Part shown: positions 7,755 to 33,917 of the stretch, in pieces
Numbering within the stretch: the stretch's first letter is position 1
Layout of the letters: each line of letters begins with the position of its first letter
Assembly: GCA_944372505.1 (NCBI GenBank)
Contig: CALVZK010000001.1
Span: 385,185 to 449,184, forward strand
DNA: 64,000 nucleotides
DNA from: an uncultured Clostridia bacterium
GTDB lineage: Bacteria; Bacillota; Clostridia; Christensenellales; UBA1242
Direction of reading: 5' to 3'
Translations under genes and position numbers: made by a program
Notes under the pieces: model-generated
The model's database searches: none
The model's input: the letters and a program-made list of their open reading frames with translations, nothing else
What the model was told of the DNA's origin: nothing

Positions 7755-7762
7755 TTTACCTC

Positions 7763-13671: not shown

Positions 13672-13697
13672 AAAGAATATGGCGTGCCATATTCTTT
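13672..13697 (-). terminator. Rho-independent terminator of the giant lipoprotein gene
   Basis: aaagaatatgg-cgtg-ccatattcttt hairpin overlapping the stop codon, followed by UUUUUU on the minus strand. Confidence 0.75.
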
Positions 13698-16600: not shown

Positions 16601-19600
16601 TCTTCATCAATGGTTAAATTATTAGCAAGTTTGTATGTTAATAAATCTGATTTAGATATATCAGTACTTGTTAATGCAACATACAAATTGTTTTGTGATG
16701 TCGAAAGCAATGGCGTTGACAATTTATAAGTATTTAGTATCGCATATGATTGACTTTCCACTCTCATAGTATTGTTTGAAATAGTGCCGTTGATAGATAA
16801 AACGATGTACTTATATTCACCTGAATAATCAAAATCCAAATACACAGTAGAGTTTGTCCCTATTTGAACAATTTTGTTTTGTTCACCACTAGCCGTAGTA
16901 AAATATTTGACTAAAATCGAATCTGAATTATTTTCTCCTGAATCAAAATTAATACCAAGATTACCTTCTTCAATAAAAATATTATTATCATTTAAATCTA
17001 AGAAAGTAAGATTAATTGAAGTATTCTTTCCATTTATTGAGCCATAAATTATTTGACCACTTTGTGAAGAAACATTTGTAATCAAGTTACCTTCATCATT
17101 TGTAAAAGCATATAAGTCTACTCTAATCGATTTATTAGTAATATTATCAAAGCCATAATTTAACAAATAATCTCTAAGATTTGTAAAATTAATTGTAAAA
17201 TTATTTATAGTGGAATCATGAATAATATCGTTAATTTCTTCATTATCATAGAATATTGCCCAATTGCCGGAGATATATCTTATATCAAATTCAATATACT
17301 CGTTATCTTCATACTTATGAATATCGGATTCATAATTAAATCTCATAATTAACTTAAATTCAGTCGCAAGCTCTTGTATATATGAAGATGATTCTTCGTT
17401 ATACAAATATAATGGAATGTTGGTAACTTTTACTTCATAATAATTTTTATTTCCTAAAGAGCCTTCTTCTGTTCTATTGTTTTTTTGAAGTTCCACGCTT
17501 GGTGAAGGATTTACATACATTATAATAGACTCAGAAACCTTGGAATCTATTACATTAAGAGAATTTGGTGAAGTTTGATAAACACTAACAGAATATTCTC
17601 CTGCTGGAATAGACACACCAAAATCATTAAACAAAATACTATCCCCACTTATACCTCTAGAAGATTTCATAAGTGTATTTATTAATGATTTAGTATTTTC
17701 TGCGGAATTTCCTGATACATTTGACAAGTTAAGATTTAAATAAGTTTTAAGTAGATCAAAATATGATATTTCTTTATTTATTTGGGCATAATCACTATCC
17801 ATATTATATATTGTAACATCAGGGAATAAATGATAAGCTGGGATAATATCTGTTTGATAAACAACTGATGTATCACTTCCATCTTTTCTTAATGTAAATT
17901 TTATTTTAATGTATTGACTTGATAAATTGCTTGAAGTAAATGTAATAGGATTTATAAAATTATTATTTGTGCCTAATAATTCATATAATACTGGTTTATT
18001 CTCTGAATTTTTTGTAACTCCAAAGTAATCATTTAAATAATTAATAAATTCGTTGTTTGTTTTAAATTTATCAGCATCAAAAGTAATTTTTCCTTCTGTA
18101 ATTTGCAAAGAAGATGGCGTTTCAAATTTATATATTAATCCTGTATATGCAACTTCATTTGAAGCTAAAACCAAAGTTTCAGTTATAGAAGGCAAGGCTA
18201 TTATTGAAATGTTATATTGTTTGCCAGGTATAATATCTAAAACATTTCTTAAATCAATAGATTCTGTATTTACTTGCAATTTTGTAACAAGTTTATTTTC
18301 TTCGCCTTCAATTATTTCTCTAATTACAACATAATAAGAATAAGGTGTAAAGGTTGTTTCATCAACAAAATCTTCAGGTTTAATCCATGACCAAGAAAGA
18401 ATATTATTCTTAAAAGAAACATCTAATTGAACAGTATTTAATTTTTTAATAACAAAATTATATTCGGTAAATTGATAGTAATTTTCATTCGTAGAATCAT
18501 AACCTATTCTTGAAATATTTATTTGAATTATTCCATAATCTATATTAGATAAAAGTTCTTTTAAATTAATTGCGTAACAAGCAGAATATAAAATTTCTTC
18601 ACTTTGATCATCTCCTAAAGTTGTCACAAATGTCCCTTTATCATTTTGAGAAGTAGTCTTCCAGTAACCGCGCGTAGCCACTGCAGTCTTATATTCCCTT
18701 ATCATTTGATCTTGATATATTATTTCTATAGAGAATGTAACAGTAATATCATTTAAAACATTTTCATTTAAAATATCAAAAATTATATAATCTTGACTAA
18801 AATCACTAGATCTCTTAATTATAGCCGAATTATCTGTTTTATAATTAAAATCAAAATTTGCCCAATCCGCAGTAACAGAATTATTTTTCCCTACGGTGAT
18901 TTCAAACTCATAATTATTTTCTTTAAGGTAATTTAAAGTTAGATCTTTCTCATTATAAAATATTTGAAGAAAATCTATCATAGATATTTCAAAAATATTG
19001 GTTTGCTCTGATTGTAAATTAGGAACAAATTCTTTAACAACTTCTTCTCCGTTAATGATAGCTTTAGCATAGAAAATTATATTTGTTAAATCTTCGTTGA
19101 AAACAGTAATAATTATATTGCCACTATCGTTAATGTGTAAATTTTCTACTCCTTGAAGTTTTCTCCCAGTTAAATTGAAACTATTATAAGAAGGCAAAAT
19201 GTTTTCTGTTCCATCTTCATCAACTAATAAAATTTTAATGGAATATTCTCCATATCTGCCTTTTAATAAATTATCATAATCATTTAAATTTAAAGGTAAT
19301 TGATCTGCAGTAAATACATAATCTGTAGTATATGTTCCGCCTATAGTTAATTGAAAATATATGTCTGAATTGTTCGCAATAGAATTTTCAAAATTTATAT
19401 TTAATAAACCATTGTTATCTATAGAAGCATCTATAATAGTTTGGTACCTGTTTAAAATTATTTCTGCACTTTCAGATGAAATGCTACCCAAACTAATCAC
19501 CTTAATTGAAACATTTGAGATTTCTGAAGTAAGTAAAGATTTTTTTAGAGTTAAATTATATGTGTTTTTATCCAAAATTAAAGAATAATTTTCGCTTTCC

Positions 19601-22600
19601 CCTTGCCCTGTCGTAAATGTCAAAACTTCACTTTGTTTAGAGGTTATTGTGATTTCAAATTTTATATCTACTAAATCAGTCCAAATATCTTGCCAACTTA
19701 CAATCGCATACGAATTTAAATACTTATCTATTTGTGACACACTTTTTTCATCTTGTAAGATTTTATATGATAAATCATTTATAGCATCAATTTTTTTGAT
19801 TGAAATTTCATTACTAATTATTTCACCATAATAGCCTTTAGCAAAGTCGTTTTGTGTGGTAAGACTATAATCAATTGTACTTGCCTTAACATAAATTTTT
19901 ACTTCACTAGATAAAACAATTCCTATTTGTTCTTCTATTTCCTGAATTGAAAATTCATTACCATTGACTGAAATATTATAAGTTTTATCTTCATTCATTA
20001 TATATAACATATAATTAACTGGATATTTGGATTGCCCTTCGCAATCTACTGCAAGTCTATCCCATGATAAGATATCACCAACTTGAGTCAGCATGAATGT
20101 TTCATTCGCTAAATTACTCAAATTATAAGTTACTTTATTAGAGTCTAAATAATAATTATTCCCATTATCTTTAGCAATAACTTGAATTTCAAAATCATTA
20201 ACAATATAATCTTCGATAAAGAAATAGCCAGAATTTGAACCTGCAGTATAACTAACATTATCTGTTGAACCATTAACAAAAACATTTTCTATATTTGAAA
20301 TATCATTAATAAAATTAAATGAAACAATGTATTTATCTTGATATTTCCCAACGTTAACAGATGAAACTGGAGCAATTTGTTTAATAAAAAGAACATTTGA
20401 ATCTTGAGAGTCCAAATAATTTGGATTTACACTCCGAACAAATACTTCTTTTTGTAAACTCCAATCTACACTTTTAATTTTATCTAATGAAATACTACAT
20501 TCAGTATAATTTTCTAATACTGCAATATTATCAATATAAATATCGTATTTGGTTTCATCTGCTACTTGATTCCATTGTAGAATTTTTGTATCACTATTAA
20601 ATGTTAATAATGGTGATTGTAATTGTGTTAATATTATTTCATCTTTCCCCGTCGTAGTTTTACCATACAAAGAAGAAATATTAAATTCCCCTCCACCTAA
20701 ATCATTATCTTGTACAAAAGAATAGATCTTTACATTCACACTTTCTGCAATTCTATAATGAGTTGCAAAAGAAATATCATTAATTAAAAGATCGTTAACT
20801 AATTCCTGTAAATTAAAGTAATTTTGTGTATTATTGCTCCAAAAAGAAGAATAATAATTACCATTTTGTGAATTCGTTAAAATTATTGTTATATAATAAT
20901 TTTCAATATTAGCATCTTGAACATTCCAACTGACTATGCCATCATAAAATTGCATATTGCTAGGTGCTTCTACACGATTAATATTAACTGTCCTAATTAA
21001 ACTATTTAAATAATATTGATTTTCTTCATTTGCCTTAGAAATAAATTGCAAGGAAATATTGAAATCATTATCATAAGAATAAATATCTATTTTATTTTGA
21101 TCGTCTAAAGCTACCAATTGTTGATCTATTTTAACTATAATTTCTTCGATGTTTTCAATATTCTGTACCTGAAGCCATTCATGATTTTTGATTCCTAAAC
21201 TATCAAAACTTTCTTGTACAACAAATCTTGGCATAGCTAATCTTTCTATAAACATTTCATAAGGTGTGGAGTCTAGATGAATTTGTCCATCATATTTAGA
21301 ACCGCTAGTAGCAACGATTTTAATATTATAATTTTTAGATTGTTCAAAGCCATTAGCAAATCTATAAGTGGCTTTTGCACTATCATTATTTACTTCAATA
21401 CTTCCATCCAAATTATCATCTATATAAACGTTATAACCGCCACCATATTCAACAGTAGAAATTTCAAGATAAAAATTGTCATTTTCTTTAATTAGTACTG
21501 CAGAAGGAGTATCATTTTGTATAGTTACGAAAAAATTGCCAATTAAACAATTATTATTGTCATGAAAATTACAATTTAGAAATTTGTTAGTTAAATTAGA
21601 AATTGAGTATACTTTAATTACATAATAACCAAAATCCAGTTTATTTTCAATTACTCCATCCATAGTATAACCAGATTGAATTACGTCTGAATTTATAAAA
21701 TAATTTTTATCTGCTTTAAATATTTCATAATATATTTGATAAAAACCATTGTATTTTTCTTCTAAATTCTCCCAAGAATAGTAACCATTTTCTTGTTGAC
21801 TACTTTGTAAAACTACAGGTAAAATTTCTAAAGTTTTGTACTTTTGAGATAAAATGGCATGTTCAACTTTAAATTCATCTCTATTTCCTGCTATAATTTT
21901 TATATTGTAAATATTATCCTGTGGAATAAAGTCTTTTAAGTTATAAATAGTAATATATACAACCGAATTTTGAATTAATATTTCTGCATCTTCAACTAAA
22001 TCCTCATTTACATAAATTTCATAATAATTAGCATTTGCAATTTCAAGAATGGTAAATACTGATCTATTTTCTTGTTCATAATAATTATGATCAACCTCGG
22101 ATAATTCGTCCAACACGAAAAATTGAAAGTTAAATGGATTAGAATTCAAAATATTTTCATATTGAACTTCTTCATAAATAAAAGGTCTATCTTCAACTGG
22201 AAGAGCTATAATTGAAAGATTATACTCACCAACTTCAAGCCCTGATAAATCTATTTCAAATTCATTTTTATCAAAATATAATACTTTATCTGAGAATGAA
22301 ACTTTATAATTTGTGTTATAAAAATCTTCAACAATATTTATTATTGCTTTGTTTCCGTCAAACACAACTTTAGCATTTGGCGTATTTAATTTTGCAAAGT
22401 CATAAACCCCAGATGAATGGCTTGTAAGATATAAATTATTACCACTTACTCCACCCAAAGAATTTACAACCAAAGTATAACCTCCACTAGGTAGGCCGTC
22501 AAAAACTTCAAAATTATAGTTTTCTTTATTTTTAACTAAATTAAACTCTTCACCAGTAGAATTATCTATGAAAGTAAATAAATATCTTTCTGCATTATCA

Positions 22601-23559
22601 ATATTATCCCATGATATATATCCATCTTTATTTTGTTCTTCTACACTATTGTAGACAGGAATAATATTGTCGAGTACAGTTAAAGAAAAATATGTACTTG
22701 TAGACAATTTTTCATTATTCAAATCAAAAGCAATAACTTCAACAGAAACACTATCCTCATTATTTATAGAAGAAAAATTATAAGAAAACTGATTACCAAC
22801 TAAATTTTCATAAATTAAAAACCCTTCAATAAAAACATTATAATAAGCATTTTCTTTGTCTTGCCAAGTTATAGTAGCATTGAAATCATCTCTCTTCTCA
22901 ACAGGAATAACAGTTAGATTTTCCAATTTACCCATCACTCCATAATTAATAACTTGTCCATCTGTCAAAGAAGAAGCATCAATATATTTTTTTTCATCTT
23001 CTAATGCTTGTAATTTAACGTAATAGCAACCTTTTTCACTTAACTGATAATAGTCTTGTACTATTATTTCTTCAAAAATTAAATTATCATAATCAATTTC
23101 CAGCAAATCTGTAATATTTGCAATTAAAATCTTGTAATTAGTTGATGAAATTTCTTCGCCTTTTACTATCGCCCTTGAAATATCCCATGAAAGCAACCCT
23201 TCTTCATCAACTCTTATATTTGTTGGCAAAGAAAATTGATATTTTATAATTAATTTACAACTAGCAAAATTTTTGTTGTTATATCTAGCGAAAACAATAG
23301 TTTCTCCACTACTTTTTGCTACAAAATTTTTATTATCTTCAGAGGATACTAGTTCTTTATTAGAAAAAACAATTTCAACAGAATTTTTATCTCCAATTTT
23401 TAAATTTAATTCATCATAAAAATTTATACTTTCTGAAATAGAAAGCACATATGTATCATTTTTAAATTCACCACTGACACTAGGTTTACTAGAACAAGCG
23501 ACTAAAGAAATCAAAGATAAAACCATCAATGCCAAAACAGTTAGAATTTTTTTCTTCAT
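13696..23559 (-). CDS. Giant surface lipoprotein (3287 aa) with FN3/Ig-like repeats and a C-terminal beta-helix-like domain
   Basis: Uninterrupted 9.86-kb ORF; signal peptide with LVAC lipobox; at least 11 recurring xSW(D/E/Q/N)...Y-x-V/I strand motifs; C-terminal GTESSPYLISNAEQF followed by NxGxIxN turns; AGAAGAGG RBS. Confidence 0.85.
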   Translation of the reverse strand: MKKKILTVLALMVLSLISLVACSSKPSVSGEFKNDTYVLSISESINFYDELNLKIGDKNSVEIVFSNKELVSSEDNKNFVAKSSGETIVFARYNNKNFASCKLIIKYQFSLPTNIRVDEEGLLSWDISRAIVKGEEISSTNYKILIANITDLLEIDYDNLIFEEIIVQDYYQLSEKGCYYVKLQALEDEKKYIDASSLTDGQVINYGVMGKLENLTVIPVEKRDDFNATITWQDKENAYYNVFIEGFLIYENLVGNQFSYNFSSINNEDSVSVEVIAFDLNNEKLSTSTYFSLTVLDNIIPVYNSVEEQNKDGYISWDNIDNAERYLFTFIDNSTGEEFNLVKNKENYNFEVFDGLPSGGYTLVVNSLGGVSGNNLYLTSHSSGVYDFAKLNTPNAKVVFDGNKAIINIVEDFYNTNYKVSFSDKVLYFDKNEFEIDLSGLEVGEYNLSIIALPVEDRPFIYEEVQYENILNSNPFNFQFFVLDELSEVDHNYYEQENRSVFTILEIANANYYEIYVNEDLVEDAEILIQNSVVYITIYNLKDFIPQDNIYNIKIIAGNRDEFKVEHAILSQKYKTLEILPVVLQSSQQENGYYSWENLEEKYNGFYQIYYEIFKADKNYFINSDVIQSGYTMDGVIENKLDFGYYVIKVYSISNLTNKFLNCNFHDNNNCLIGNFFVTIQNDTPSAVLIKENDNFYLEISTVEYGGGYNVYIDDNLDGSIEVNNDSAKATYRFANGFEQSKNYNIKIVATSGSKYDGQIHLDSTPYEMFIERLAMPRFVVQESFDSLGIKNHEWLQVQNIENIEEIIVKIDQQLVALDDQNKIDIYSYDNDFNISLQFISKANEENQYYLNSLIRTVNINRVEAPSNMQFYDGIVSWNVQDANIENYYITIILTNSQNGNYYSSFWSNNTQNYFNLQELVNDLLINDISFATHYRIAESVNVKIYSFVQDNDLGGGEFNISSLYGKTTTGKDEIILTQLQSPLLTFNSDTKILQWNQVADETKYDIYIDNIAVLENYTECSISLDKIKSVDWSLQKEVFVRSVNPNYLDSQDSNVLFIKQIAPVSSVNVGKYQDKYIVSFNFINDISNIENVFVNGSTDNVSYTAGSNSGYFFIEDYIVNDFEIQVIAKDNGNNYYLDSNKVTYNLSNLANETFMLTQVGDILSWDRLAVDCEGQSKYPVNYMLYIMNEDKTYNISVNGNEFSIQEIEEQIGIVLSSEVKIYVKASTIDYSLTTQNDFAKGYYGEIISNEISIKKIDAINDLSYKILQDEKSVSQIDKYLNSYAIVSWQDIWTDLVDIKFEITITSKQSEVLTFTTGQGESENYSLILDKNTYNLTLKKSLLTSEISNVSIKVISLGSISSESAEIILNRYQTIIDASIDNNGLLNINFENSIANNSDIYFQLTIGGTYTTDYVFTADQLPLNLNDYDNLLKGRYGEYSIKILLVDEDGTENILPSYNSFNLTGRKLQGVENLHINDSGNIIITVFNEDLTNIIFYAKAIINGEEVVKEFVPNLQSEQTNIFEISMIDFLQIFYNEKDLTLNYLKENNYEFEITVGKNNSVTADWANFDFNYKTDNSAIIKRSSDFSQDYIIFDILNENVLNDITVTFSIEIIYQDQMIREYKTAVATRGYWKTTSQNDKGTFVTTLGDDQSEEILYSACYAINLKELLSNIDYGIIQINISRIGYDSTNENYYQFTEYNFVIKKLNTVQLDVSFKNNILSWSWIKPEDFVDETTFTPYSYYVVIREIIEGEENKLVTKLQVNTESIDLRNVLDIIPGKQYNISIIALPSITETLVLASNEVAYTGLIYKFETPSSLQITEGKITFDADKFKTNNEFINYLNDYFGVTKNSENKPVLYELLGTNNNFINPITFTSSNLSSQYIKIKFTLRKDGSDTSVVYQTDIIPAYHLFPDVTIYNMDSDYAQINKEISYFDLLKTYLNLNLSNVSGNSAENTKSLINTLMKSSRGISGDSILFNDFGVSIPAGEYSVSVYQTSPNSLNVIDSKVSESIIMYVNPSPSVELQKNNRTEEGSLGNKNYYEVKVTNIPLYLYNEESSSYIQELATEFKLIMRFNYESDIHKYEDNEYIEFDIRYISGNWAIFYDNEEINDIIHDSTINNFTINFTNLRDYLLNYGFDNITNKSIRVDLYAFTNDEGNLITNVSSQSGQIIYGSINGKNTSINLTFLDLNDNNIFIEEGNLGINFDSGENNSDSILVKYFTTASGEQNKIVQIGTNSTVYLDFDYSGEYKYIVLSINGTISNNTMRVESQSYAILNTYKLSTPLLSTSQNNLYVALTSTDISKSDLLTYKLANNLTIDEENGYYYTSPQITTTYLLHQFGYSEEYYENEAQQFYVYLLGNTGKFTSIKEENISGSDNLLIFNGNKESYPILSSNESIINAEMLKDLQKNPIVYNGNIMWESSSIDNLKEGTQLLYQVDIKYYDLVQDGSSRRYEFILSETYYTTSTTLNYSYIDNTYNYYIISVTALAGTITNEQATNKVKTIEENYYNITNSVFYENGSNVLRGQVVSVGEEKENGFVTRTDPAILTENMTGISGNSIEFLIKASVYNNNPNDNNTILELEKNLSTSSRIEIISKYVDEKLVEHTEILSGSFNFSEYTGIDAIGYVKVTFTLDEGQLEIPYAISIEIRNYIYSEENSLLMSNPLIINNVYKLTNISENYYSIVLQKDGNQYKTYIDFSNYFNQVSVSRDNTCYKLIIEAQNKISEEILTFEFTSSNESKLFELSEEYSLIKVQVVDNQSSTQGNRKLILSSDIKIFEIENTEVKDENNEWLKISWDSQYCIFTWQWDEDHNDLNNNSYQYYVSINQGGNIINEITTNNYYMPQQGGNINIQSFSVRARLISNQLENKIYIFSEQINYNLDQGPINYTLFAGGKGTESSPYLISNAEQFLEIYKRNREGTTIYYKLISDIILGDNFLIQLEKEEIDFRKFTFYGVLDGKNNSTTYTLTLNVSDYLVTEEPYSVSLNGYNADFNNFFALFENIDSSAIIKNLNIDLNISINSLNNTNLLISPLALYNAGTIQNVNVQNVTFDNLSGSGSNAVFVGGIACVNYGLIKNCENNSTFTFEMKQNLSLRFAYAGITLFNATNLQSSGEIQNSFNYGNKSIRVAQNNNVSYLSGITLVNSGYIVRSGNDGNFDVYTISSITAFTSYQTGVTIISNFGTIEYCYNNGLMTKSSSVGSLYRSGITYSITGGTINYLAETQGYALISNAPQPPTDHGKNYAVSNSGTSASINTINLSVLNPINAGEEYYFSIISIEDGFLAQITHN

Positions 23560-24299: not shown

Positions 24300-24554
24300 T
24301 TATTTGAAAATTCTTTTTAAGAATGGAACTTTGTTAGCTGCAGAAGCAAATTTAAGTTGACTAAAATTACCTTGTAAACAAACTTCTTTTTCTTCTAAAT
24401 TCAATTTTTTTACCTCAATATTCTGTCCTGAAATAACTATTGTTTTTTCTTCGGTTTCGACAACTGCTTGATTGTTTACAGAAGAAACAACTTTTGTAGC
24501 CCCTTTAATAAGAAGAACATCTCCTTCTAAATGCAAAATGCTATTCATATTCAC
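24300..24554 (-). CDS. yabP: Sporulation protein YabP
   Basis: 84 aa; the pattern LxGxxxLxIxG...ISGxNIEVKKLNLEE...LxGNF is typical of YabP. Confidence 0.8.
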   Translation of the reverse strand: MNMNSILHLEGDVLLIKGATKVVSSVNNQAVVETEEKTIVISGQNIEVKKLNLEEKEVCLQGNFSQLKFASAANKVPFLKRIFK

Positions 24555-26028: not shown

Positions 26029-26104
26029 CGAGGTGTAGCGCAGTTGGTAGCGCGTGCGGTTCGGGACCGTAAGGTCATGGGTTCGAATCCCATCTCCTCG
26101 ACCA
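26029..26104 (+). tRNA. tRNA-Pro (anticodon CGG)
   Basis: Hand-folded cloverleaf: acceptor cgaggtg/ctcctcg (one U-U mismatch), D arm gcgc/gcgc, anticodon stem tgcgg/ccgta with loop ttCGGga, T arm atggg-ttcgaat-cccat, encoded CCA. Confidence 0.9.
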
Positions 26105-26206: not shown

Positions 26207-26235
26207 TTGACTTGTAAAAGATTTAATGTTATAAT
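26207..26235 (+). promoter_or_regulatory. Near-consensus sigma-A promoter (TTGACT-N17-TATAAT with TG extension)
   Basis: Read directly: -35 at 26207-26212, a 17-nt spacer ending in TGT, and -10 at 26230-26235, 27 nt upstream of the 836-aa ORF start. Confidence 0.75.
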
Positions 26236-26262
26236 AAAATAGATTTAAACAAAGGAATAAAT

Positions 26263-28773
26263 ATGGACAAAGAAGAAAAATCATTAAGACAACTTTTAAA
26301 AGAAAATGGTTATAACCTCGATAACCTTTTTACTTCAGGAGTTGCAAATAGTGAAGAAACTAAGGAACAACTAGTAGGAATTTTAAGTGATATTATCAAA
26401 AATCAGACTAATAATTCAAGCAAAATTAATAAAGTTGAAGGCAAAATCGATGGAGCAGATTTTTATTTAGGAATAATATCTGACGCTCATTCCAAATTAT
26501 ATTTACTTGAAAATTATCTAAGTCAATTAAATACTTTAGGAGGTAAATGTGTCGTTACGGGTGATATAAGTAATGGCTCAAATCACTTTAAAGGACATGA
26601 TAATTCTTTAAAAGAATCCTTAAATTTAACTAACGATGTAATTTCCATTGCAGATATCATGAAAAGGTATCCTGAAATGTTTATTGGTTATGTAGAAGGT
26701 AACCACGACCAATGGATATCCGAAGGAACTAGTCTACTACTTGGCCATTTAGCATGTAAAATTGCTGGCGTAGATAGCATTTATGCTAAAAATGTACAAC
26801 TTATAACTCAAAATACAAAAATTAATGGGAAAGATATTCCGTTCAATTTCTTAATTGTTCATGGCGAAGGTATGCCAAGCAATATTATTAACGCATTAAA
26901 AAATGCACTTTCCACTGCTTGTAGCAAAAATGTAGATGCTATTATTTTTGGTCACACCCATAAAATGGGCAGTGCTTCAACAACAATTCTAAAAAGAATT
27001 GCCAATGGAACTTGGCAAGAAAGACAAGTTACAGCATACAATCCAGGATCTATTTTGGAAACAAGCGATTATGCTGACAAAGCAAATTATCCCCCGCTTA
27101 CTCCATTTGATGGAACGGTGCTACATTGCAGTGTTGTAAAAGGCAAAAGCGGAGAATACAAAAAATGTATAGATTTAGAAAATGTAATGAACATAATCAA
27201 CAAAAATGATAATTCCGTGTTAAATTCACTGGAAAGCACTTTAAATCGTTTAGAATCAAAAAAATTTAAAACAAAACAAGACATAAAAGATGCATATATA
27301 AAAATTTATGAACAATTTTTATCAAAAAAATGTGATTTTGACAAACCTCAAAATGGTCAATATCTTGTTAGTTTGAGCGGTATTAGTGATATGTATTGTC
27401 CAGATACACCTCAAGAGATCAGAAAAAAAATCAAAAAAGATTTATCTTACATAGTATCAGTTATTCAAGAAATACCAAACATTTCAATTGTCCTTAATGG
27501 TGATTTAATTTATGATTATAATAAAGGTTATATAGAAAAGAAAGATTATTGTTCTGACACCATAGCCGCCTTGCAAGACTTATGCGAAATATTAGCCCCA
27601 GTATCTAATAAAATTTGTGCTATAAACAATGGGAAAATGGAAGAAAGCATAATGAAAGTAGAACGAGATAAAGGAAATGGTAGGATAGGTAGTGGCAAAA
27701 GAAAACTTAAGGAACTTGCAAATTATGCTTCCCAAATATTACAACTAGATGAAAAACTTGCTTATGCCCCATATGATAAACAAAAAATGTACGAGGCACA
27801 ATTAGCAATACAAAATGACTCTGTAAATCAAGCAAATCAAAAAGTTTTAGATAAAGCTTATGAAAATTTTAAAAAAGCAATCACGCAAAAGCCAGAAATC
27901 TATGAACAAATATTTAAAGATGAAAAAAATATACCTAAATCACCTGCTTTATTTGAAAAGAAAGTTAAAGAATTTTTATTGGACAAATTGAGAAGAGAAC
28001 ACAAGGTTCTAGATATTTCAAATCCTGAAGATAAGAAAATTATTGATAAAAGATATCCTCTGTCAGAAATAGATTTAAGAATGCCTAATGAAAACTTAAT
28101 AGGAAATATCATTTGTAAAATGTTAAATTTACCAATAAAAACCACAAAAGTAAATTCAATTATTAATTCAATGTCATCTTTTAACATTTATAGTTCCGAT
28201 GGTAAAAATAAAACAATATCTACATGCTATTGCACTTCCCTTTCTAAATTTATGAGAGAATTACCATCTAGATTAAATAATATGGGAGAACCACCTGATG
28301 TTGTTTTATTAAATAATTATGTCACAAAATCTGGAACAGATTTACAAGAATTCACTACTCAAATAAGAATAAGTTACTTTAACGCAAATGGAGAGAAAAA
28401 AATTAAAGATGTTCTTATTATTGATAGTGGAAGTTTTGCATACAGTAAATATTTAACAAATGGCAAAATCCCTACAAACTTAATTTATAAAATAATTGAT
28501 GTTGACCCGATATTTAAAACATTGATACCGAAAAATAGTATTAATTATATGGACCCGGAATCTAAAAGACCAGCAATTGAAAAATTTAATTATGAAAGTA
28601 TAAAAAATCAAAATAATCAACAATTAGATAAAACTATCAGAGAAAAAATTAAAAAAAGTGCTATAAAATGTTTAAATAATTTTGATAAATTAAAATATTT
28701 AAAAGAAAACGATAAATTGGGCAAAATTATCAGTGAGCAATTAGATGAAATTTTTGAATGGAGTGAAGAATGA
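26263..28773 (+). CDS. 836-aa protein with an intact calcineurin-like metallophosphoesterase domain and a second, degenerate copy
   Basis: Motifs DAH (aa 74-76), GD (100-101), GNHD (146-149), H200 and GHTH (230-233). The second half aligns to the first (DVVLLNNYVTKSGT against DAIIFGHTHKMGSA; DSGSF against NPGSI) but has lost the metal-binding and catalytic His residues. Confidence 0.7.
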   Translation: MDKEEKSLRQLLKENGYNLDNLFTSGVANSEETKEQLVGILSDIIKNQTNNSSKINKVEGKIDGADFYLGIISDAHSKLYLLENYLSQLNTLGGKCVVTGDISNGSNHFKGHDNSLKESLNLTNDVISIADIMKRYPEMFIGYVEGNHDQWISEGTSLLLGHLACKIAGVDSIYAKNVQLITQNTKINGKDIPFNFLIVHGEGMPSNIINALKNALSTACSKNVDAIIFGHTHKMGSASTTILKRIANGTWQERQVTAYNPGSILETSDYADKANYPPLTPFDGTVLHCSVVKGKSGEYKKCIDLENVMNIINKNDNSVLNSLESTLNRLESKKFKTKQDIKDAYIKIYEQFLSKKCDFDKPQNGQYLVSLSGISDMYCPDTPQEIRKKIKKDLSYIVSVIQEIPNISIVLNGDLIYDYNKGYIEKKDYCSDTIAALQDLCEILAPVSNKICAINNGKMEESIMKVERDKGNGRIGSGKRKLKELANYASQILQLDEKLAYAPYDKQKMYEAQLAIQNDSVNQANQKVLDKAYENFKKAITQKPEIYEQIFKDEKNIPKSPALFEKKVKEFLLDKLRREHKVLDISNPEDKKIIDKRYPLSEIDLRMPNENLIGNIICKMLNLPIKTTKVNSIINSMSSFNIYSSDGKNKTISTCYCTSLSKFMRELPSRLNNMGEPPDVVLLNNYVTKSGTDLQEFTTQIRISYFNANGEKKIKDVLIIDSGSFAYSKYLTNGKIPTNLIYKIIDVDPIFKTLIPKNSINYMDPESKRPAIEKFNYESIKNQNNQQLDKTIREKIKKSAIKCLNNFDKLKYLKENDKLGKIISEQLDEIFEWSEE

Positions 28774-29027
28774 AATACGGAATTGAACAGCAAGGATTTT
28801 TATTAAAATGTTCTAATTGTCAGAACATTGTATCAAAAAACGGAGATCTTCAAAAAAATTTTTGTGAAGAATGTGGTGCCCCGTTATCTGTTACAGCAAT
28901 AGCAGATTATGAGCAACAAAAAGAAGAAACTAAAAAACTATTATTAAACACAATGAAAGATATTGCAATTAAAAACAATACTGATTCTTTCACAAAAATA
29001 ATAAAAATTATGATAGAAGAATATTAA
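28770..29027 (+). CDS. Zinc-ribbon protein (85 aa)
   Basis: CSNC-(17 aa)-CEEC ribbon followed by a helical tail; ATGA start/stop overlap with the upstream gene. Confidence 0.6.
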   Translation: MKYGIEQQGFLLKCSNCQNIVSKNGDLQKNFCEECGAPLSVTAIADYEQQKEETKKLLLNTMKDIAIKNNTDSFTKIIKIMIEEY

Positions 29028-29052
29028 TTTATAATTTTTATAATAAATATAA

Positions 29053-29610
29053 TTAATAATTAGTTCTTAACTCCCAAATAATAATATTTTCTTTTTTAAT
29101 TCCAACTGGTATATCAAAAAAACTAAATTCAACTATAATATCAAACAAATTATTATTAAAAATAAAATCTATAATTTTATCTATATAAGGAATAACTTTA
29201 ACTCTTTTATCGAAAATATTTGTACATATACTATAATCAGGATTGTTAGAGGCATCTCTGGTAGTGAATGCACTATTCATCGTAATACTTAAATTAATTT
29301 GCATATCTGTATAAATTAAAATTTCACCAGTTATTTTTTTGTGATTTTTATAATTTAATCCACTTAAAGTAATTAACACATTTTTTGTTTTTTTTAAATA
29401 ATAAACAACTTGTTCTAGCGACAAGTTGTTTTTAAATTTCTTTGACATCAGACTATAACTATCCCTTATAGCAAATTTTAAATTACGATATTTGCTCAAA
29501 AAATTTTCTACTTCATCAAAATTATCGCCAGTAAATGCTATATATGGAAAATGATTTAAATTTAACATTTTAATTTTTTGCATACTTTCTAATTTATTTA
29601 AAATAATCAT
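29053..29610 (-). CDS. Hypothetical protein (185 aa), partner of the radical-SAM-like gene
   Basis: The start was chosen at the ATG forming an ATGA overlap with the upstream stop (29607-29610). No domain was recognised. Confidence 0.55.
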   Translation of the reverse strand: MIILNKLESMQKIKMLNLNHFPYIAFTGDNFDEVENFLSKYRNLKFAIRDSYSLMSKKFKNNLSLEQVVYYLKKTKNVLITLSGLNYKNHKKITGEILIYTDMQINLSITMNSAFTTRDASNNPDYSICTNIFDKRVKVIPYIDKIIDFIFNNNLFDIIVEFSFFDIPVGIKKENIIIWELRTNY

Positions 29611-30704
29611 TTTGCCCACCAAAAAGAACTTATTTGAGGACTTTCATAAAATTCGGCATCAACGGTCATTCCTGTCAACCACTTTATAAGTCTAACATCA
29701 GAAGTCGTCAAAATTTGATCAGTTTTAATTATTTTTCCACTTATCTTACTGCAATCACTTGTAGGAAATTCACAAATCCCCTTTTTCTTTAAAATACATT
29801 CGTGATTCTGTTTTGTTATTATTTCAAAATCAAAAGGGAGCAAATTTTTACTCACAATAGGGATATTATTTTTAAATCTTTTGCATTTTTCTTCCATAGG
29901 ACATCCACAACAACCAACTTCATTCGGTCGATAATAATGGGCATTATAATCTCGTTCTAAATTGTGAACGTATGAAAACAAACAAGATGTCTTTTTAAAA
30001 ATTGGAACATTATATTTTTTTGCAATATCACAAAATAATTTTTCTTTTTCTTGAGAAATTATTTTTTTATGGCCAAACTTGTAACCTGGGTAAGGATTTA
30101 AATTAATATTATTTTTTTCCCAAAACTCAACACTTTCTTTTTTACCTTGTAGCCCGCTGTAACCAACTGCTAATTTATATTTTTTAGCCATCCTTAAAAC
30201 AAATTTAAAGCTCTTTTTATCATCATTGATATTATAACAAATTGGTCTGAATTCAATTGAATATTTGTAATTATATTTTCTTTTTTTTATTTGTTTTAAA
30301 TTGTTTTTAAACATTTTTATATTTGAACCATCAAATTTGCTATTTTTACCAAATGTAGAAAATGCTATATGTAAATCTAAATCAAAACTTCTGTCTGGAA
30401 ATTTTGAAAAATCTCCTTTAGTTATAATTATTACAGGTCCTGAATGTTTCACCTTCTCAAGTTTTTCAAGAAGTTTTATTGTATTTTCTGTTTGCAAAAA
30501 AGGATCTCCATAAAATAAATTTACAGCAACTGGTATTTTATTAAATTGAGGATTAATTTCGGTAGGTAATACAAAAAAAGATTGTTTTTTTACTTTATCA
30601 CACAAAACTCTACAATAACTGCAATCATAACAATATTCTAAAGATTGACCTAATAACATAAAAGACTTAGCAAATAATGCTTCTTGGATTAAATTATTGT
30701 TCAT
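29607..30704 (-). CDS. Cys-rich SplB/COG1533-like radical-SAM-family protein with a non-canonical CX2CX2CX3C motif
   Basis: EYCYDCSYCRVLC cluster motif, GDPFLQTE...PVIIITKG resembling the DPYQP.E...ITK signature of COG1533, and extra C-terminal Cys clusters (CCGCPMEEKC, CEFPTSDC). The start is at 30704, behind a GAGGAG RBS; the ORF track extends to 30728. Confidence 0.4.
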   Translation of the reverse strand: MNNNLIQEALFAKSFMLLGQSLEYCYDCSYCRVLCDKVKKQSFFVLPTEINPQFNKIPVAVNLFYGDPFLQTENTIKLLEKLEKVKHSGPVIIITKGDFSKFPDRSFDLDLHIAFSTFGKNSKFDGSNIKMFKNNLKQIKKRKYNYKYSIEFRPICYNINDDKKSFKFVLRMAKKYKLAVGYSGLQGKKESVEFWEKNNINLNPYPGYKFGHKKIISQEKEKLFCDIAKKYNVPIFKKTSCLFSYVHNLERDYNAHYYRPNEVGCCGCPMEEKCKRFKNNIPIVSKNLLPFDFEIITKQNHECILKKKGICEFPTSDCSKISGKIIKTDQILTTSDVRLIKWLTGMTVDAEFYESPQISSFWWAK

Positions 30705-30764
30705 ATATATTAGCTCCTCGTTAAGCATTATAAATCAATTTTTAGAGTTTGTAAAATACATTTA

Positions 30765-30784
30765 TTGTTAGAATATCATAACAA
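30765..30784. promoter_or_regulatory. Perfect inverted repeat TTGTTA-N8-TAACAA (candidate LysR operator)
   Basis: Read directly. It lies between the LysR stop (30796) and the radical-SAM-like start. Confidence 0.35.
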
Positions 30785-30795
30785 AAAAGATATAG

Positions 30796-31701
30796 TTATA
30801 AATCTATATTTAAATAAGTCTCGATGAAAAATCTAGATATTTTGCTTAAATTATTATTTTCATACGCCAAACATATTTCTGTTAAAGGTAAATTATCTTT
30901 AATAGGTAAAACCATTAATTCTCCTCTTTTTACATCATCTTTTATTAAATCTTCTATTACATATCCGATTCCTGCGCCTTTCTTAACAGCTCCTATAATC
31001 ATCTCGCTAGTATGAATATTTAAAATATTTTTTAAACTTATATTTTTAGTATGTAATAATTCATTTAACATTTTACGATTTGCTGTATCTGGAACTGGAA
31101 GAATAATAGGAAAATTCTCTAATTCATTTAAATTAGTGATTTTTTTTATAGAAGGGATAGCAAATTGATTAGAGACAAAAAAACAATTTTTATACTCTTG
31201 TATTTTTTTTATTGTTAAATTCTTCAAACTTGTATTTATTGGAGCAGTATCTATTATAAAATCTATTTCATGTTGATTTAACAAATTAATAAGCTGTGAT
31301 GTTGATTTACTAACTATAAGTATATCTATAGTTGGGTATATTTTATGAAATTTTGCAATTTCATCAAATAATTTTAAAATGCCTATTTGACTTGGTACAC
31401 CAATATAAAGTCTTCCTCTTTTTAAATTATCCGACTCCCCTATTTTTATTTCTGTACTATTTAAAATTTCAAAAATATTACTCACACTTTCGTATAAAAT
31501 AAGCCCTTTTTCAGTTAACTCTACACCATTTAACGAACGATAAAATAATTGAGAATTATAAATGTTTTCTAGTTGCTTTATAGCTCTGCTAATAGATGGT
31601 TGAGACGTATAATACTTTTCTGCAGTTTTAGTAATACTTTTTTCTCTTGCTACGTTATAAAAAGTCTTTAATAAATTTAAATTCATCTCGTCTGTTTTCA
31701 C
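30796..31701 (-). CDS. LysR-family transcriptional regulator
   Basis: N-terminal wHTH (LLKTFYNVAREKSITKTAEKYYTSQPSISRAIKQLE) and a C-terminal substrate-binding domain. The start is GTG behind AAGGAG, or an ATG 5 codons downstream. Confidence 0.9.
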   Translation of the reverse strand: MKTDEMNLNLLKTFYNVAREKSITKTAEKYYTSQPSISRAIKQLENIYNSQLFYRSLNGVELTEKGLILYESVSNIFEILNSTEIKIGESDNLKRGRLYIGVPSQIGILKLFDEIAKFHKIYPTIDILIVSKSTSQLINLLNQHEIDFIIDTAPINTSLKNLTIKKIQEYKNCFFVSNQFAIPSIKKITNLNELENFPIILPVPDTANRKMLNELLHTKNISLKNILNIHTSEMIIGAVKKGAGIGYVIEDLIKDDVKRGELMVLPIKDNLPLTEICLAYENNNLSKISRFFIETYLNIDL

Positions 31702-31735
31702 ATTTTCTCCTTATTTTTAAAAATTCATATTCATT

Positions 31736-32443
31736 TTAAAAAGAATTCTCTTCATCTGTTAATGATGTAATAAATATTTTTTTAAAAACGGGAATTAAAT
31801 CCTCTAAATCATTTAAATTCCTAAAGACGATATTCCATTTCAATTTATTATTTACATCAACATTGTCTGGATTTACGCATATAGTTTTGCAACCCGATAA
31901 ATATGCCCATTCATCATTGTCTCCATTCCCAATAAAACATATATCTTCACCTTTTAAACAATTTCTTTCTTTTAATTTTTCAATAAATGTCGCTTTATGC
32001 TCGTAATCAAATTCTGTACCTCTTATATAATCTAAATAATTTTCATTATTAAAAACAAAAACATTTGCGTTTATTGAATCAAAATATTTTGTATTCTCAC
32101 CTAAAACATCTTCTATAACGGATTTTATTCCTCCGCTTACTAAATGTAAAGAAACTCCTTTCTTTTTTAAAAATTCTAAAAGATTTTTAATGCCTGGCAA
32201 TAATCTAATTTTTGTAGAAATATTATCAATAAATTTTTTATTTAAATTAAATTTTTTAAAAGCTTGACATGTCAAATCACACCATTGCTGGTAATTGATT
32301 TCTTTTCTAATAAATTTAGAATATAAGTTTGAATATAAAGATCCGGCAGACACATCATAGCCTAGCCCCTCCCAAATACTTCTCCAAATATTAGAATTTT
32401 TATAAGTCAATGTTCCATCAAAATCAAAAATAATTGCTTTCAT
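31736..32443 (-). CDS. HAD-IB (SerB-like) family phosphatase
   Basis: IIFDFDGTLT motif I, VSGG motif II and GNGDNDE motif IV. The start was set at MKAII (32443), behind an AGGAGA RBS. Confidence 0.85.
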   Translation of the reverse strand: MKAIIFDFDGTLTYKNSNIWRSIWEGLGYDVSAGSLYSNLYSKFIRKEINYQQWCDLTCQAFKKFNLNKKFIDNISTKIRLLPGIKNLLEFLKKKGVSLHLVSGGIKSVIEDVLGENTKYFDSINANVFVFNNENYLDYIRGTEFDYEHKATFIEKLKERNCLKGEDICFIGNGDNDEWAYLSGCKTICVNPDNVDVNNKLKWNIVFRNLNDLEDLIPVFKKIFITSLTDEENSF

Positions 32444-32602
32444 GTTTTCTCCTAAAAAATTATAACACACATAAAATAATATTTCAATAAGCATTTTTTC
32501 TAGAATTGTTTACAAGTTTATTTTGTTGAACTATTCCACTGTTTAAATAATTATTTAATGATTAGACTAAATAAAATTTATTCTGCTAATTTGATTAAAT
32601 AT

Positions 32603-32631
32603 TTGAAATACCTGTTTTTATCCGCTATAAT
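32603..32631 (+). promoter_or_regulatory. Sigma-A promoter TTGAAA-N17-TATAAT
   Basis: Read directly; 19 nt upstream of the ATAGGAGA RBS and the ATG at 32651. Confidence 0.65.
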
Positions 32632-32650
32632 GAAAAAATAGGAGAAAATT

Positions 32651-33679
32651 ATGGCACTTAAATATTATGAAGATAATATTATTGATAAAAATAGAAAATC
32701 AATTTTTCTTGCAGGCCCTACTCCACGAACTAAAGATATTAAAAGTTGGAGACCTTTAGCAATCAAAATCTTAAGAAAATTAAAATTCGATGGCGATATT
32801 TACATTCCTGAATCTAAATCTGGTATGTATGGAAAAGATCTCAAATTAGACTTTAAATATATTTTTGATTGGGAATTAGAACATTTATCTAGAGCAGATG
32901 CAATTTGTTTTTGGATTCCTCGCGAATTAAATACAATGCCGGCTTTTACTACGAATGTAGAATTTGGATATCATATCAAATCAAGAAAGATAATTTACGG
33001 AAGACCAGAAAATACACCAGAAACTCGTTATTTAGATTGTTTATATGAAAAAGAGTATGAACAACGTCCTTGCAAATCTCTTGAAGAAACATTAAAAAAA
33101 TGTGTAAATAATTTAACAAATAACTCTAAAAAAACATTTTTTACGTCGGATACTCATTTTAGTCAAATAAGGACACTAAAATATTTTAGACGTCCTTTTA
33201 AAAATGTTCAAGAGATGAATCAAACAATTGTATGTAATTGGAATAAAATCGTAAATAAAAATGATTTAATATACCATCTTGGTGACTTTGGAGATTTAAA
33301 ATTTGTAGAAAAGTTAAACGGAAATATAATTTTAATTCTTGGCAATTATGAAATTAAAGATATGAAAGAAAACTTTAATAATAATTTTAAAGAATATAAA
33401 AAATATTTAATTTCATTAGGTTTTAAAGATGTTATAAAAAAAGGTAAAATAATTACACTTTCAAATCCAAAAGAAAAAATTTATTTAACACATAGACCGA
33501 CCGATTGTAATGAAACATTATTTAATTTATTTGGTCATATACATAATTTATGTAAGGTTAAAAAATTCGGATTAAATGTAGGAACAGATTGTTTTAATTA
33601 TCTCCCTGTCTCAATAGAAGAAGTACTTTTTTTTAAACAAGCAATTGAAAAGTATTATGATCAAGATGTTTTTGTTTAA
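32651..33679 (+). CDS. Fusion of a nucleoside 2-deoxyribosyltransferase-like domain and a COG4186-type metallophosphoesterase
   Basis: N-terminal half: IFLAGP...WELEHLSRADAICFWIPR...TTNVEFGY. C-terminal half: FFTSDTHF, NWN, HLGDFGD, GNYE (His to Tyr in motif III) and GHIHN. Confidence 0.7.
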   Translation: MALKYYEDNIIDKNRKSIFLAGPTPRTKDIKSWRPLAIKILRKLKFDGDIYIPESKSGMYGKDLKLDFKYIFDWELEHLSRADAICFWIPRELNTMPAFTTNVEFGYHIKSRKIIYGRPENTPETRYLDCLYEKEYEQRPCKSLEETLKKCVNNLTNNSKKTFFTSDTHFSQIRTLKYFRRPFKNVQEMNQTIVCNWNKIVNKNDLIYHLGDFGDLKFVEKLNGNIILILGNYEIKDMKENFNNNFKEYKKYLISLGFKDVIKKGKIITLSNPKEKIYLTHRPTDCNETLFNLFGHIHNLCKVKKFGLNVGTDCFNYLPVSIEEVLFFKQAIEKYYDQDVFV

Positions 33680-33842: not shown

Positions 33843-33917
33843 TGGTGCGTCTAGAAGGACTCGAACCCTCGATAATCGATCCGAAGTCGATTGTGATATC
33901 CACTTCACCATAGACGC
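33843..33917 (-). tRNA. tRNA-Arg (anticodon UCG)
   Basis: Hand-folded: acceptor gcgtcta/tagacgc (perfect), D arm gtga/tcac, anticodon stem atcga/tcgat with loop ctTCGga, T arm gaggg-ttcgagt-ccttc, encoded CCA. Confidence 0.88.

Follow-up and report, generated by a model that had tools for sequence, protein, structure and literature searches.

A clade-restricted two-gene operon of uncultured Clostridia encoding a metallophosphoesterase and a zinc-ribbon protein

Metallophosphoesterase (MPP) proteins that join with a partner are known from several settings. Eukaryotic polymerase B-subunits, which are inactive MPPs, and the archaeal PolD subunit DP1, which is an active one, dock the Cys4 zinc module of their partner, and in Mre11/SbcD two MPP units form a homodimer. 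MPP domains can also be defence effectors: in the Metis system, MisA combines a PUA-like sensor with a calcineurin-like, NAD+-cleaving phosphatase, MisB is a HAD phosphatase, and a ligand triggers the cleavage of NAD+ to nicotinamide mononucleotide (NMN) and AMP (10.1101/2025.11.05.686725). Another system, Kiwa, consists of the membrane sensor KwaA and the effector KwaB (PMC11785009). Here, we analyse a pair of adjacent genes in a 64,000-nucleotide (nt) stretch of DNA from an uncultured Clostridia bacterium (GenBank assembly GCA_944372505.1, contig CALVZK010000001.1; hereafter the window). The pair encodes a large MPP protein and a small zinc-ribbon protein, and the locus is best explained as a clade-restricted, chromosomally inherited, two-subunit metallophosphoesterase.

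A conserved two-gene operon with its own promoter

The elements of the operon are as follows.

26207-26235, plus strand: SigA/sigma-70-type promoter, with TTGACT at 26207-26212, a 17-nt spacer and TATAAT at 26230-26235
26263-28773, plus strand: large-subunit gene, an open reading frame (ORF) of 836 amino acids (aa)
28770-29027, plus strand: small-subunit gene, an ORF of 85 aa
28760-28773, plus strand: coupling junction, with a GGAG Shine-Dalgarno sequence at 28760-28763 and an ATG at 28770-28772 that overlaps the TGA stop at 28771-28773

The promoter that the initial annotation had described as TTGACT-N17-(TG)TATAAT is indeed there. Its -10 box is extended (TGtTATAAT at 26227-26235, with the TG at 26227-26228) and, with a match of 11/12 plus the TG, it is the best site in the region. 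The window is strongly AT-rich, with a GC content of 22-36%, and promoter-like sites are not enriched in it (26 observed versus 24.3 in shuffles), so their frequency gives no support to this one. What makes the promoter at 26207 credible is its conservation across lineages: in each of the 14 others examined, the large gene is preceded by a TTGAC[TAG] -35 box, a 17-18-nt spacer and an A/T-rich -10 box, and in most of them the promoter is near-consensus and usually TG-extended. In one of the homologous loci, which we designate by L numbers (L001, 8001-8048), the database start codon of the large protein (P0005) falls within the conserved promoter TTGACA-N17-TGtTATACT. The true start is probably the methionine of MTKMDEEE or of MDEEE, ~40-50 nt downstream, which would make the 16-residue N-terminal extension of this protein an annotation artefact. 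Judging from the promoter sequence, the operon is probably strongly expressed.

The Shine-Dalgarno sequence of the small gene sits within the 3′ end of the large gene. An overlap of stop and start codons (ATGA) had been pointed out before; it is present in the window, but this exact arrangement is not kept in orthologs, where the junction varies from an 8-nt overlap (-8) to a 55-nt gap (+55) and measures at most 20 nt in all but one lineage. The pairing itself is far more constant. The small gene lies directly 3′ of the large gene wherever the locus is sequenced far enough, and this holds in the distant lineages L017, L018, L019 and L021, whose large proteins are at 16-30% identity. Its product is 83-91 aa long across lineages (78 aa in one of them), and homologs of the small protein turn up only beside the large gene. 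Pairwise identities of the large and small proteins are correlated (r=0.81, over 91 non-independent pairs). The proposal that the two genes act as one unit has thus been borne out in every lineage that could be checked, and the pair is a conserved two-gene operon with its own promoter. The initial annotation had also staked its reading on the large protein lacking a clear match to a characterised housekeeping enzyme and on the two genes occurring together in other genomes; no such match was found, and the genes do co-occur.

How common is this operon? A word-index search with the large protein gave 29 clusters, 48-66% identical and derived from metagenomes or metagenome-assembled genomes (MAGs), all of them 815-858 aa long except one truncated cluster of 691 aa; repeated with a broad alignment, it returned this close family only and no distant members. 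An exhaustive hidden Markov model (HMM) search over 1.84 billion representatives gave 68 hits, of which ~20 were full-length clusters at 68-1338 bits and the rest fragments. Below the family came only ~250-aa MPPs at E>1e-8, and the six of these that were tested all belong to the phage family phrog_7339. The distant full-length homologs amount to ~17 clusters. Among 185,579 species, represented by one genome each, we found 10 loci in nine MAGs, which are uncultured Clostridia/Firmicutes from human gut, reindeer, sheep and cattle rumen, and a metagenome scan added five further loci, all intact and paired. Every named or titled member of the family is likewise an uncultured Clostridia/Firmicutes MAG protein, and the names given at the source go no further than "hypothetical protein" or "metallophosphoesterase [Clostridia bacterium]". 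The full-length family had no tblastn match in 50,697 phage (GenBank) and 72,556 plasmid (PLSDB) records, and none in IMG/VR with three queries; a phage or plasmid origin was rejected on these searches.

Architecture of the two proteins and what it may mean

An AlphaFold model of the large protein (predicted template-modelling score, pTM, 0.74), together with family profiles, divides it into the following parts.

26263-26439, plus strand: N-terminal helical leader, aa 1-59 (model helices 3-14 and 30-47; low predicted local distance difference test score, pLDDT, at residues 44-55)
26440-27192, plus strand: catalytic MPP (calcineurin-like) domain, aa ~60-310 (Pfam, PHROGs and fold matches)
27193-27339, plus strand: helical linker, aa ~311-359 (model helices 314-332 and 338-353)
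27340-28602, plus strand: degenerate MPP-like domain, aa ~360-780 (fold and topology only)
27703-28137, plus strand: helical insertion in the degenerate domain, aa ~481-625, about 140-145 aa (model helices 485-620)
28603-28770, plus strand: C-terminal helix and tail, aa ~781-836 (model helix 787-835, a 49-residue terminal helix)

The protein is conserved nearly end to end, with a mean column identity of 62% in an alignment of 25 close homologs. In that alignment the leader carries a conserved NNS[ST]K motif, and E32, N51 and S52 are invariant; the linker is the least conserved internal region. By its sequence motifs, the N-terminal domain is a member of the MPP superfamily with one complete predicted di-metal active site. 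The five MPP motifs noticed earlier in the first third of the protein are all present: DAH 74-76, GD 100-101, GNHD 146-149, H200 and GHTH 230-233, with D74/H76, D101, N147/H148, H200 and H231/H233 as the metal-ligand motif residues. All five lie inside the match to Pfam PF12850 Metallophos_2 (aa 69-269, E 4.5e-9), and D74, H76, D101, G146, N147, H148, H200, H233 and N260 are invariant even in the broad family, at 16-29% identity. PF00149 also matches the domain above its cut-off (E 4.8e-5). The PHROGs match is phrog_7339 ("DNA repair exonuclease"), at E 2.9e-14. The fold matches of the domain are MPPs; the best, at E 2e-11, go with its phage relatives, and the best viral ones reach a template-modelling (TM) score of 0.6. 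When the whole chain was compared with the PDB by Foldseek, generic MPPs matched the N-terminal domain only (E>=1.6e-3), led by SMPDL3A/B, purple acid phosphatase and Vps29, with Mre11 also among them. A PDB sequence search with the whole protein gave no match, the Mre11/SbcD models of Pfam and NCBIfam did not match it, and the NCBIfam YfcE model did so weakly (16.7 bits versus a cut-off of 56.25). By eye, the protein contains no canonical Walker A motif (GxxxxGK[ST]); a GSGKR stretch is variable or deleted in distant members.

The initial annotation had proposed a second MPP-like module. Fold and topology support it, whereas sequence does not and the metal ligands are lost. In the model this module consists of a beta-alpha-beta-alpha-beta unit (aa 366-472) and a beta sandwich (aa 629-775), mirroring the topology of the N-terminal domain. 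A separate model of aa 355-836 (pTM 0.71), searched against the PDB, gave Mre11 as 10 of the first 17 fold matches (probability 0.63-0.94), followed by CD73, YfkN, LpxH and TM1076, all of them MPPs; the top matches, at probability 0.8-0.94, are weak by E (~1e-2) and TM score (~0.36-0.41). Pfam recognises a single MPP match in the large protein and no second domain, hhalign finds no similarity between the two modules (probability ~1%), and the C-terminal ~480 aa have no relatives in Pfam, searched with 12 members, or in a PDB profile search. Where MPP motifs I, II, III and V would be expected, the sequence has SDMY, NGD, NNGKME and GSFA; the second module thus lacks metal ligands and should be catalytically dead. 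With modest confidence, the "double MPP" can therefore be described as an active MPP plus a domain that is MPP-like in fold only.

Nevertheless, the second module and its insertion equal the catalytic domain in conservation, among close homologs as well as across the broad family, which argues that they are functional though non-catalytic. Across the broad family G413 and E460 are invariant and N455 and G457 nearly so, and the helical insertion is the most conserved region of all (mean column identity 0.47), with an LA..A...LQ(L/M) helix and the motifs Q..V..YN and FPL/P..NL. The C-terminal tail is poorly conserved (mean identity 0.39). Its acidic end (EIFEWSEE), which had been singled out as a feature, is allele-specific and not shared by homologs.

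The small protein is a four-cysteine zinc ribbon (C14, C17, C32 and C35, encoded at 28809-28874), as had been proposed, with 14 residues between the two CxxC pairs and not the 17 first given. It starts with MKYG, continues after the ribbon with a conserved PL..AI stretch and ends in a helix with TDSF; it is mildly acidic, and the net charge across the family runs from -6 to +2. The small proteins share M[KNR]YG, C[AS]NC, [FY]CxxC[GS]xPL, AI and T[DN][SA], and 12 positions are invariant over 14 lineages (M1, Y3, G4, C14, N16, C17, C32, C35, P38, L39, A43 and I44). The NOB1-type zinc-ribbon model PF08772 matches the window protein narrowly (25.7 bits versus a cut-off of 24.9) and seven of 14 members at E<0.01, and the generic Zn_ribbon_3 model matches 11 of 14. 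A NOB1-type assignment does not hold family-wide, and the small proteins are described here as generic zinc ribbons. Kinship with the zinc finger of yeast Sgf73 (CEKCGKPLALTAI, PDB 2LO3, E 0.006) was set aside, as it involves a short CxxCGxPL..AI stretch only and is probably convergent. This Sgf73-like stretch, [FY]CxxCGxPL..AI at aa 27-50 (window 28848-28919), is the best conserved part of the small protein.

We tentatively read the pair as a clade-specific, non-essential, two-subunit Mre11-like phosphodiesterase or nuclease with a maintenance role, an assignment that is plausible rather than probable. The large and small proteins would form a complex, in which the dead MPP domain may stand in for the second protomer of the Mre11/SbcD homodimer and serve as a substrate-binding platform beside the single active site. 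The large subunit would then be an intramolecular pseudo-dimer working without the Rad50/SbcC ATPase, and the acidic zinc-ribbon subunit would serve as its adaptor or regulator and would not be the chief binder of nucleic acid. The likeliest chemistry would be Mn2+/Fe-dependent phosphodiester hydrolysis in nucleic acid, for end or structure processing, and the likeliest role a non-essential, lineage-specific maintenance of genome or RNA. A nucleic-acid substrate is suggested by the annotation of the N-terminal relatives as phage exonucleases and by the Mre11-like fold of the second module, which together are a thin basis. The chromosomal, vertical character of the locus is supported by its core and metabolic neighbours, by synteny in one subclade and by the lack of copies among the phage, plasmid and viral sequences searched.

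Several points weigh against this assignment. Hydrolases of nucleotides, NAD+, lipids and protein phosphates use the MPP fold too, the Mre11 likeness is weak (Foldseek E~1e-2, TM~0.4) with no sequence similarity between the N- and C-terminal modules, and neither subunit is basic, which is unusual for a dedicated DNA binder. Besides, some strains have the pair as pseudogenes only, its rate of evolution exceeds that of the neighbouring genes and, in the subclade of the window, its flanks differ even at 85% protein identity. Pseudogenisation, fast evolution and variable flanks fit an accessory or conflict role as well as maintenance, or better.

The breadth of the MPP fold leads to a second reading, in which the large protein would be a metabolic or signalling phosphoesterase for a small molecule (a nucleotide, a cyclic or dinucleotide second messenger, NAD+, or a lipid or teichoic-acid precursor), regulated or localised by its C-terminal half and the zinc-ribbon protein. 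Consistent with this, Metallophos_2 (YfcE/MJ0936/Vps29-type) is the best Pfam model, with the weak YfcE match beside it, the whole-chain fold matches are led by SMPDL3A/B, purple acid phosphatase and Vps29 and not by nucleases, neither subunit is basic, and some neighbours belong to nucleotide metabolism (NUDIX, HAD, HD, phosphoribosyl pyrophosphate (PRPP) synthetase and tmk). Such MPPs, however, are usually single-domain enzymes of 150-400 aa, the large conserved Mre11-like domain and the helical insertion suggest a macromolecular substrate, the closest family of the N-terminal domain carries an exonuclease annotation (by homology rather than experiment), and the gene neighbourhoods are inconsistent across lineages. 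We regard this reading as distinctly unlikely.

Could the small protein instead be an antidote? If the MPP enzyme were toxic alone and the zinc-ribbon protein neutralised it by binding, one would have a toxin-immunity module, and the obligate adjacency and tight translational linkage of the genes, the small size and acidic to neutral character of the partner, the co-divergence of the two proteins, the fact that the small one is never found without the large one and their joint decay in the dead allele described below are all compatible with it. An 836-aa toxin with a conserved non-catalytic half would be atypical, though, and selfish modules are not usually inherited vertically for long at fixed positions, as this pair has been. 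Nor is there a link to mobile elements, a multi-copy spread (94%-identical copies in one MAG may be a strain mixture) or a detectable DNA-binding autoregulator domain in the small protein. This reading is very unlikely to be right.

Chromosomal setting and strain-level polymorphism

The window is chromosomal, and its genes include ribosomal-protein genes, dnaE, pfk and the sporulation genes yabP and yabQ. The neighbours of the pair differ between lineages.

L003-L006, L012 and L016: DEAD helicase, plus trmA-like and rpoB/rpoC where the contig extends
L001: gyrB/gyrA
L017: cca/degV/lepB
L018: uvrC/tmk/dtd/AP endonuclease
L021: trmE-gidA-gidB on one side and parA-parB on the other, near dnaA
L007, L008 and L015: epimerase, NUDIX, HAD, HD and PRPP synthetase
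Window: yabP/yabQ, rluA-like, MGMT, LysR and HAD

No integrase, transposase or phage genes were seen near the pair in the loci examined. The rpoB-linked subclade keeps its synteny despite considerable divergence (between L003 and L005, identity is 90% for rpoB, 65% for the DEAD helicase, 65% for the trmA-like protein, 54% for the large protein and 62% for the small one), which points to vertical inheritance at an above-average rate. Confinement to one clade, deep internal divergence and this conserved synteny argue for long vertical inheritance rather than horizontal spread. In the subclade of the window, on the other hand, even the 85%-identical ortholog in L007 has different flanks. A third conserved gene upstream was considered and dismissed: small ORFs precede the pair in L003/L006, L018 and L019, but they have no relationship to one another. 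In L007 (5232-5840) and L008 (5063-5860), two lineages from the subclade of the window, a HAD-family hydrolase gene immediately precedes the pair in the same orientation, an arrangement of interest in view of MisA and MisB in Metis. The two HAD genes belong to different subfamilies and are mutually dissimilar; their position was noticed post hoc and may be a coincidence.

PADLOC, run on 17 neighbour proteins, recognised a KwaA-like protein (E 7.5e-15) and a HAD-level PDC-S34 match, and the latter is the only indication of a defence gene near the pair in the window. The KwaA-like protein, with four transmembrane segments, is encoded directly upstream of the pair in L001, L002, L009, L010 and L013 only, where the pair keeps its own promoter; in L001 the gene lies at 7276-7854, 147 nt upstream. 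No KwaB/DUF4868 was found near it, and neither the window nor any other lineage has the KwaA-like gene. In a comparison of L001 with L013, the KwaA-like proteins share 59% identity and the adjacent MPP proteins 94%, so the KwaA-like gene must be diverging far faster or have been exchanged. The MAG CASDQU01 has two loci with this arrangement (L010 and L013), whose large proteins are 94% identical; they are either a strain mixture in the bin or a recent duplication.

In the species of the window, the operon stands in a segment that varies between strains.

26029-26104, plus strand: tRNA-Pro(CGG) (ARAGORN and Rfam), outside the operon; its 3′ end is the left edge of the strain-variable segment
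26105-31769, no strand assigned: strain-variable segment, with the promoter, the gene pair and, on the minus strand, orf189, orf373 and LysR
29053-29622, minus strand: orf189, overlapping orf373 by 16 nt
29607-30728, minus strand: orf373, cysteine-rich, with CxxCxxC near its N-terminus
30796-31701, minus strand: LysR regulator

Haplotypes were defined among contigs that encode the exact MGMT protein of the window. The intact locus occurs in six places (L023, L024 and L027, with L028-L030 partial), and another haplotype in two contigs of a closely related strain, from different projects (L025 and L026, with 1 mismatch over 13.8 kb). These two are 98.7% identical to the window over 7.8 kb upstream; the identity of L025 is 100% through 26104, the last base of tRNA-Pro, and drops immediately to 53-74%. 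There, within a replacement segment of ~2.2 kb, both genes are remnants with stops in every frame, lacking window positions 27214-28000 and 28406-28642 and with a GC content of 19% as against 28% in the intact pair. The region with the three-gene minus-strand unit of orf189, orf373 and LysR (window 29051-31769) is absent, and 98% identity is regained at the HAD gene's 3′ end. Neither orf189 nor orf373 matched Pfam, NCBIfam, PHROGs or PADLOC, and the 373-aa protein, with the start codon used here, had no database record.

Since two contigs hold decayed remnants only, the pair is not essential and behaves as an accessory locus in this species. The dead remnant has diverged from the live allele by ~25-33%, whereas the haplotypes differ at 0-3% of four-fold degenerate sites in most flanking genes and at 5.7% in the HAD gene. 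Consequently, the two alleles are much older than their backgrounds, and alleles must have been exchanged by recombination in a mosaic population. A patch in yabP (window 24300-24554 versus L025 5826-6074) differs at 14.8% of four-fold sites, which suggests mosaic recombination with a diverged lineage.

Does the tRNA mark an integration site? No second copy of the 3′ 25-mer of tRNA-Pro was found within 3 mismatches, the variable segment has no convincing flanking repeat, and there is no integrase among its genes. A classical tRNA-integrated island was rejected on these results, and tRNA-Pro is a haplotype boundary rather than an integration site. The initial annotation had taken a nuclease-like pair next to a tRNA gene as a layout typical of phage-defence or abortive-infection modules, while calling that functional reading speculation. 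As a general pattern this does not hold up: adjacency to a tRNA is species-specific (seven of 10 loci lack one), there is no integrase, the neighbours are core or metabolic genes, and no mobile copies were found.

A defence function as such deserves a separate weighing. The pair might be an unrecognised anti-phage or abortive-infection system, with the MPP as effector (a nuclease, or an NAD+ or nucleotide hydrolase) and the zinc ribbon as the sensor or restraint that releases it, a serious but unlikely candidate. Its dispensability and old live/dead dimorphism follow a pattern common at conflict loci, the variable segment starts exactly at the 3′ end of a tRNA, the pair outpaces neighbouring genes in evolution, and flanks differ between 85%-identical orthologs. 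Moreover, phage MPPs are the nearest relatives of the N-terminal domain, a KwaA-like protein lies directly upstream in one sublineage, calcineurin-like effectors have a precedent in Metis (10.1101/2025.11.05.686725), and the operon is compact, with two genes and its own promoter. These points have to be set against the lack of any PADLOC match for either protein, the core and metabolic neighbours without defence islands in the lineages examined, the lack of an integrase or attachment (att)-like repeat, the confinement to one clade with deep internal divergence and subclade synteny, the absence from phages, plasmids and viral contigs, and the tRNA adjacency that is not conserved. The KwaA-like link, in turn, is a single evolutionary event, and the pair retains its own promoter there. 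Equally unlikely, though a serious candidate too, is the most novel form of this idea: an immune or conflict module, so far unrecognised, on the chromosome of one Clostridia clade, with an ATPase-independent, Mre11-like pseudo-dimeric MPP effector (a nuclease or an NAD+/nucleotide hydrolase) that a dedicated zinc-ribbon subunit restrains or triggers. Populations would then retain live and dead alleles side by side, as the module would carry a cost whenever phages exert no pressure.

Three further observations concern the rest of the window. In L025 (~11921), 100% identity to the window extends to mid-tRNA-Arg (33886; gene 33843-33917) and then ends; L025 has no intact tRNA-Arg there and continues into other genes (a GATase/GGACT protein). 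An element seems to have been inserted into the tRNA gene, or a breakpoint to lie inside it, and this is the second junction of strain-variable sequence that coincides with a tRNA. Between the two junctions, at 31736-33679, both haplotypes keep a divergent gene pair with a Metis-like domain composition: a HAD_2 phosphatase (31736-32494, on the strand opposite to the operon, with a weak PADLOC PDC-S34 match at E 6e-8) and a nucleoside 2-deoxyribosyltransferase-like domain fused to another Metallophos_2 domain (32651-33679). This pair could be a nucleotide-sensing conflict module. At 13696-23559, on the minus strand, lies an ORF of 3287 aa that has no precomputed Pfam family and is ~99% conserved between haplotypes.

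Comparison with known systems

A protein in which a leader and an active MPP are followed by a dead MPP that carries a helical insertion, combined with a dedicated zinc-ribbon subunit, is undescribed in the libraries and literature searched, and the architecture is new at the family level, no new principle being demonstrated. No part of the small protein, and none of about 500 residues of the large one, has a family assignment, and their characterisation would define new domains. If our reading of the architecture is true, the two-lobed Mre11/SbcD dimer has been reproduced in one chain with one live and one dead site, an 85-aa zinc-ribbon subunit replaces the Rad50/SbcC ATPase, and the pair offers a minimal system in which the contributions of the second protomer and of the ATPase to Mre11-type nucleases could be dissected. 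The live and dead alleles in near-identical strains amount to a natural knockout in the human or animal gut that can be tracked in metagenomes, within the limits set by uncultured hosts and a tiny family.

That the architecture belongs to no named defence or repair system, as first proposed, agrees with searches of PADLOC, NCBIfam and PDB sequences, which gave nothing meaningful; in PADLOC-DB v2.0.0 (2023, which does not cover later systems) the best matches were noise, a reverse transcriptase (RT) at E 0.006 and TniQ at E 0.011. With Kiwa, the locus shares the KwaA-like protein found upstream of the pair in one sublineage; KwaB (DUF4868), the effector, is missing there, the window has no KwaA-like gene, and the pair is not Kiwa. 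The resemblance to Metis lies in a two-gene operon whose large protein has a calcineurin-like metallophosphatase domain. However, Pfam finds no PUA domain here (aa 1-59 are modelled as helices), the partner is a zinc ribbon and not a HAD phosphatase (PF13419), and no counterpart of the second MPP-like domain features in the description of MisA with which the pair was compared. Without a PUA domain or a HAD partner, the pair is not Metis.

Among single-domain enzymes, the phage MPPs of phrog_7339 (~256 aa) are the nearest sequence relatives of the N-terminal catalytic domain; unlike the large protein, they have no leader, degenerate second domain or zinc-ribbon partner, and their annotation as exonucleases rests on homology, not experiment. 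YfcE and MJ0936 are linked to the catalytic domain through Metallophos_2, its best Pfam model, but they are single-domain enzymes of ~150-190 aa, and the NCBIfam YfcE score is far below its cut-off. The polymerase B-subunits and DP1 differ in that no OB fold and no polymerase gene nearby accompany the pair; pol delta subunit B and a phage "DNA polymerase II small subunit" are low-ranking fold matches, below generic MPPs. By analogy, they provide a precedent for an interface between an MPP and a zinc module, and we do not claim relatedness.

With Mre11/SbcD there are both differences and parallels. No SMC/Rad50-type ATPase lies adjacent to the pair in any locus (the SMC_N-type gene of L021 belongs to the dnaA region, ~4.4 kb upstream and in opposite orientation), the partner being a zinc-ribbon protein. 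The pair is therefore not SbcCD, as the initial annotation already held. The second MPP unit is dead here and carries a helical insertion, the fold likeness is weak (E~1e-2), and PDB searches with the whole protein and with a C-terminal profile gave no sequence similarity to Mre11/SbcD, no Mre11-type nuclease domain with capping domain being recognisable by sequence. What the two have in common is an MPP di-metal site with a GNHD-type motif III and the pairing of two MPP-fold units, as a homodimer in Mre11 and as a fusion of an active and a dead unit here. In line with this, Mre11 provides the top PDB fold matches of the second module and is found among those of the N-terminal domain as well.

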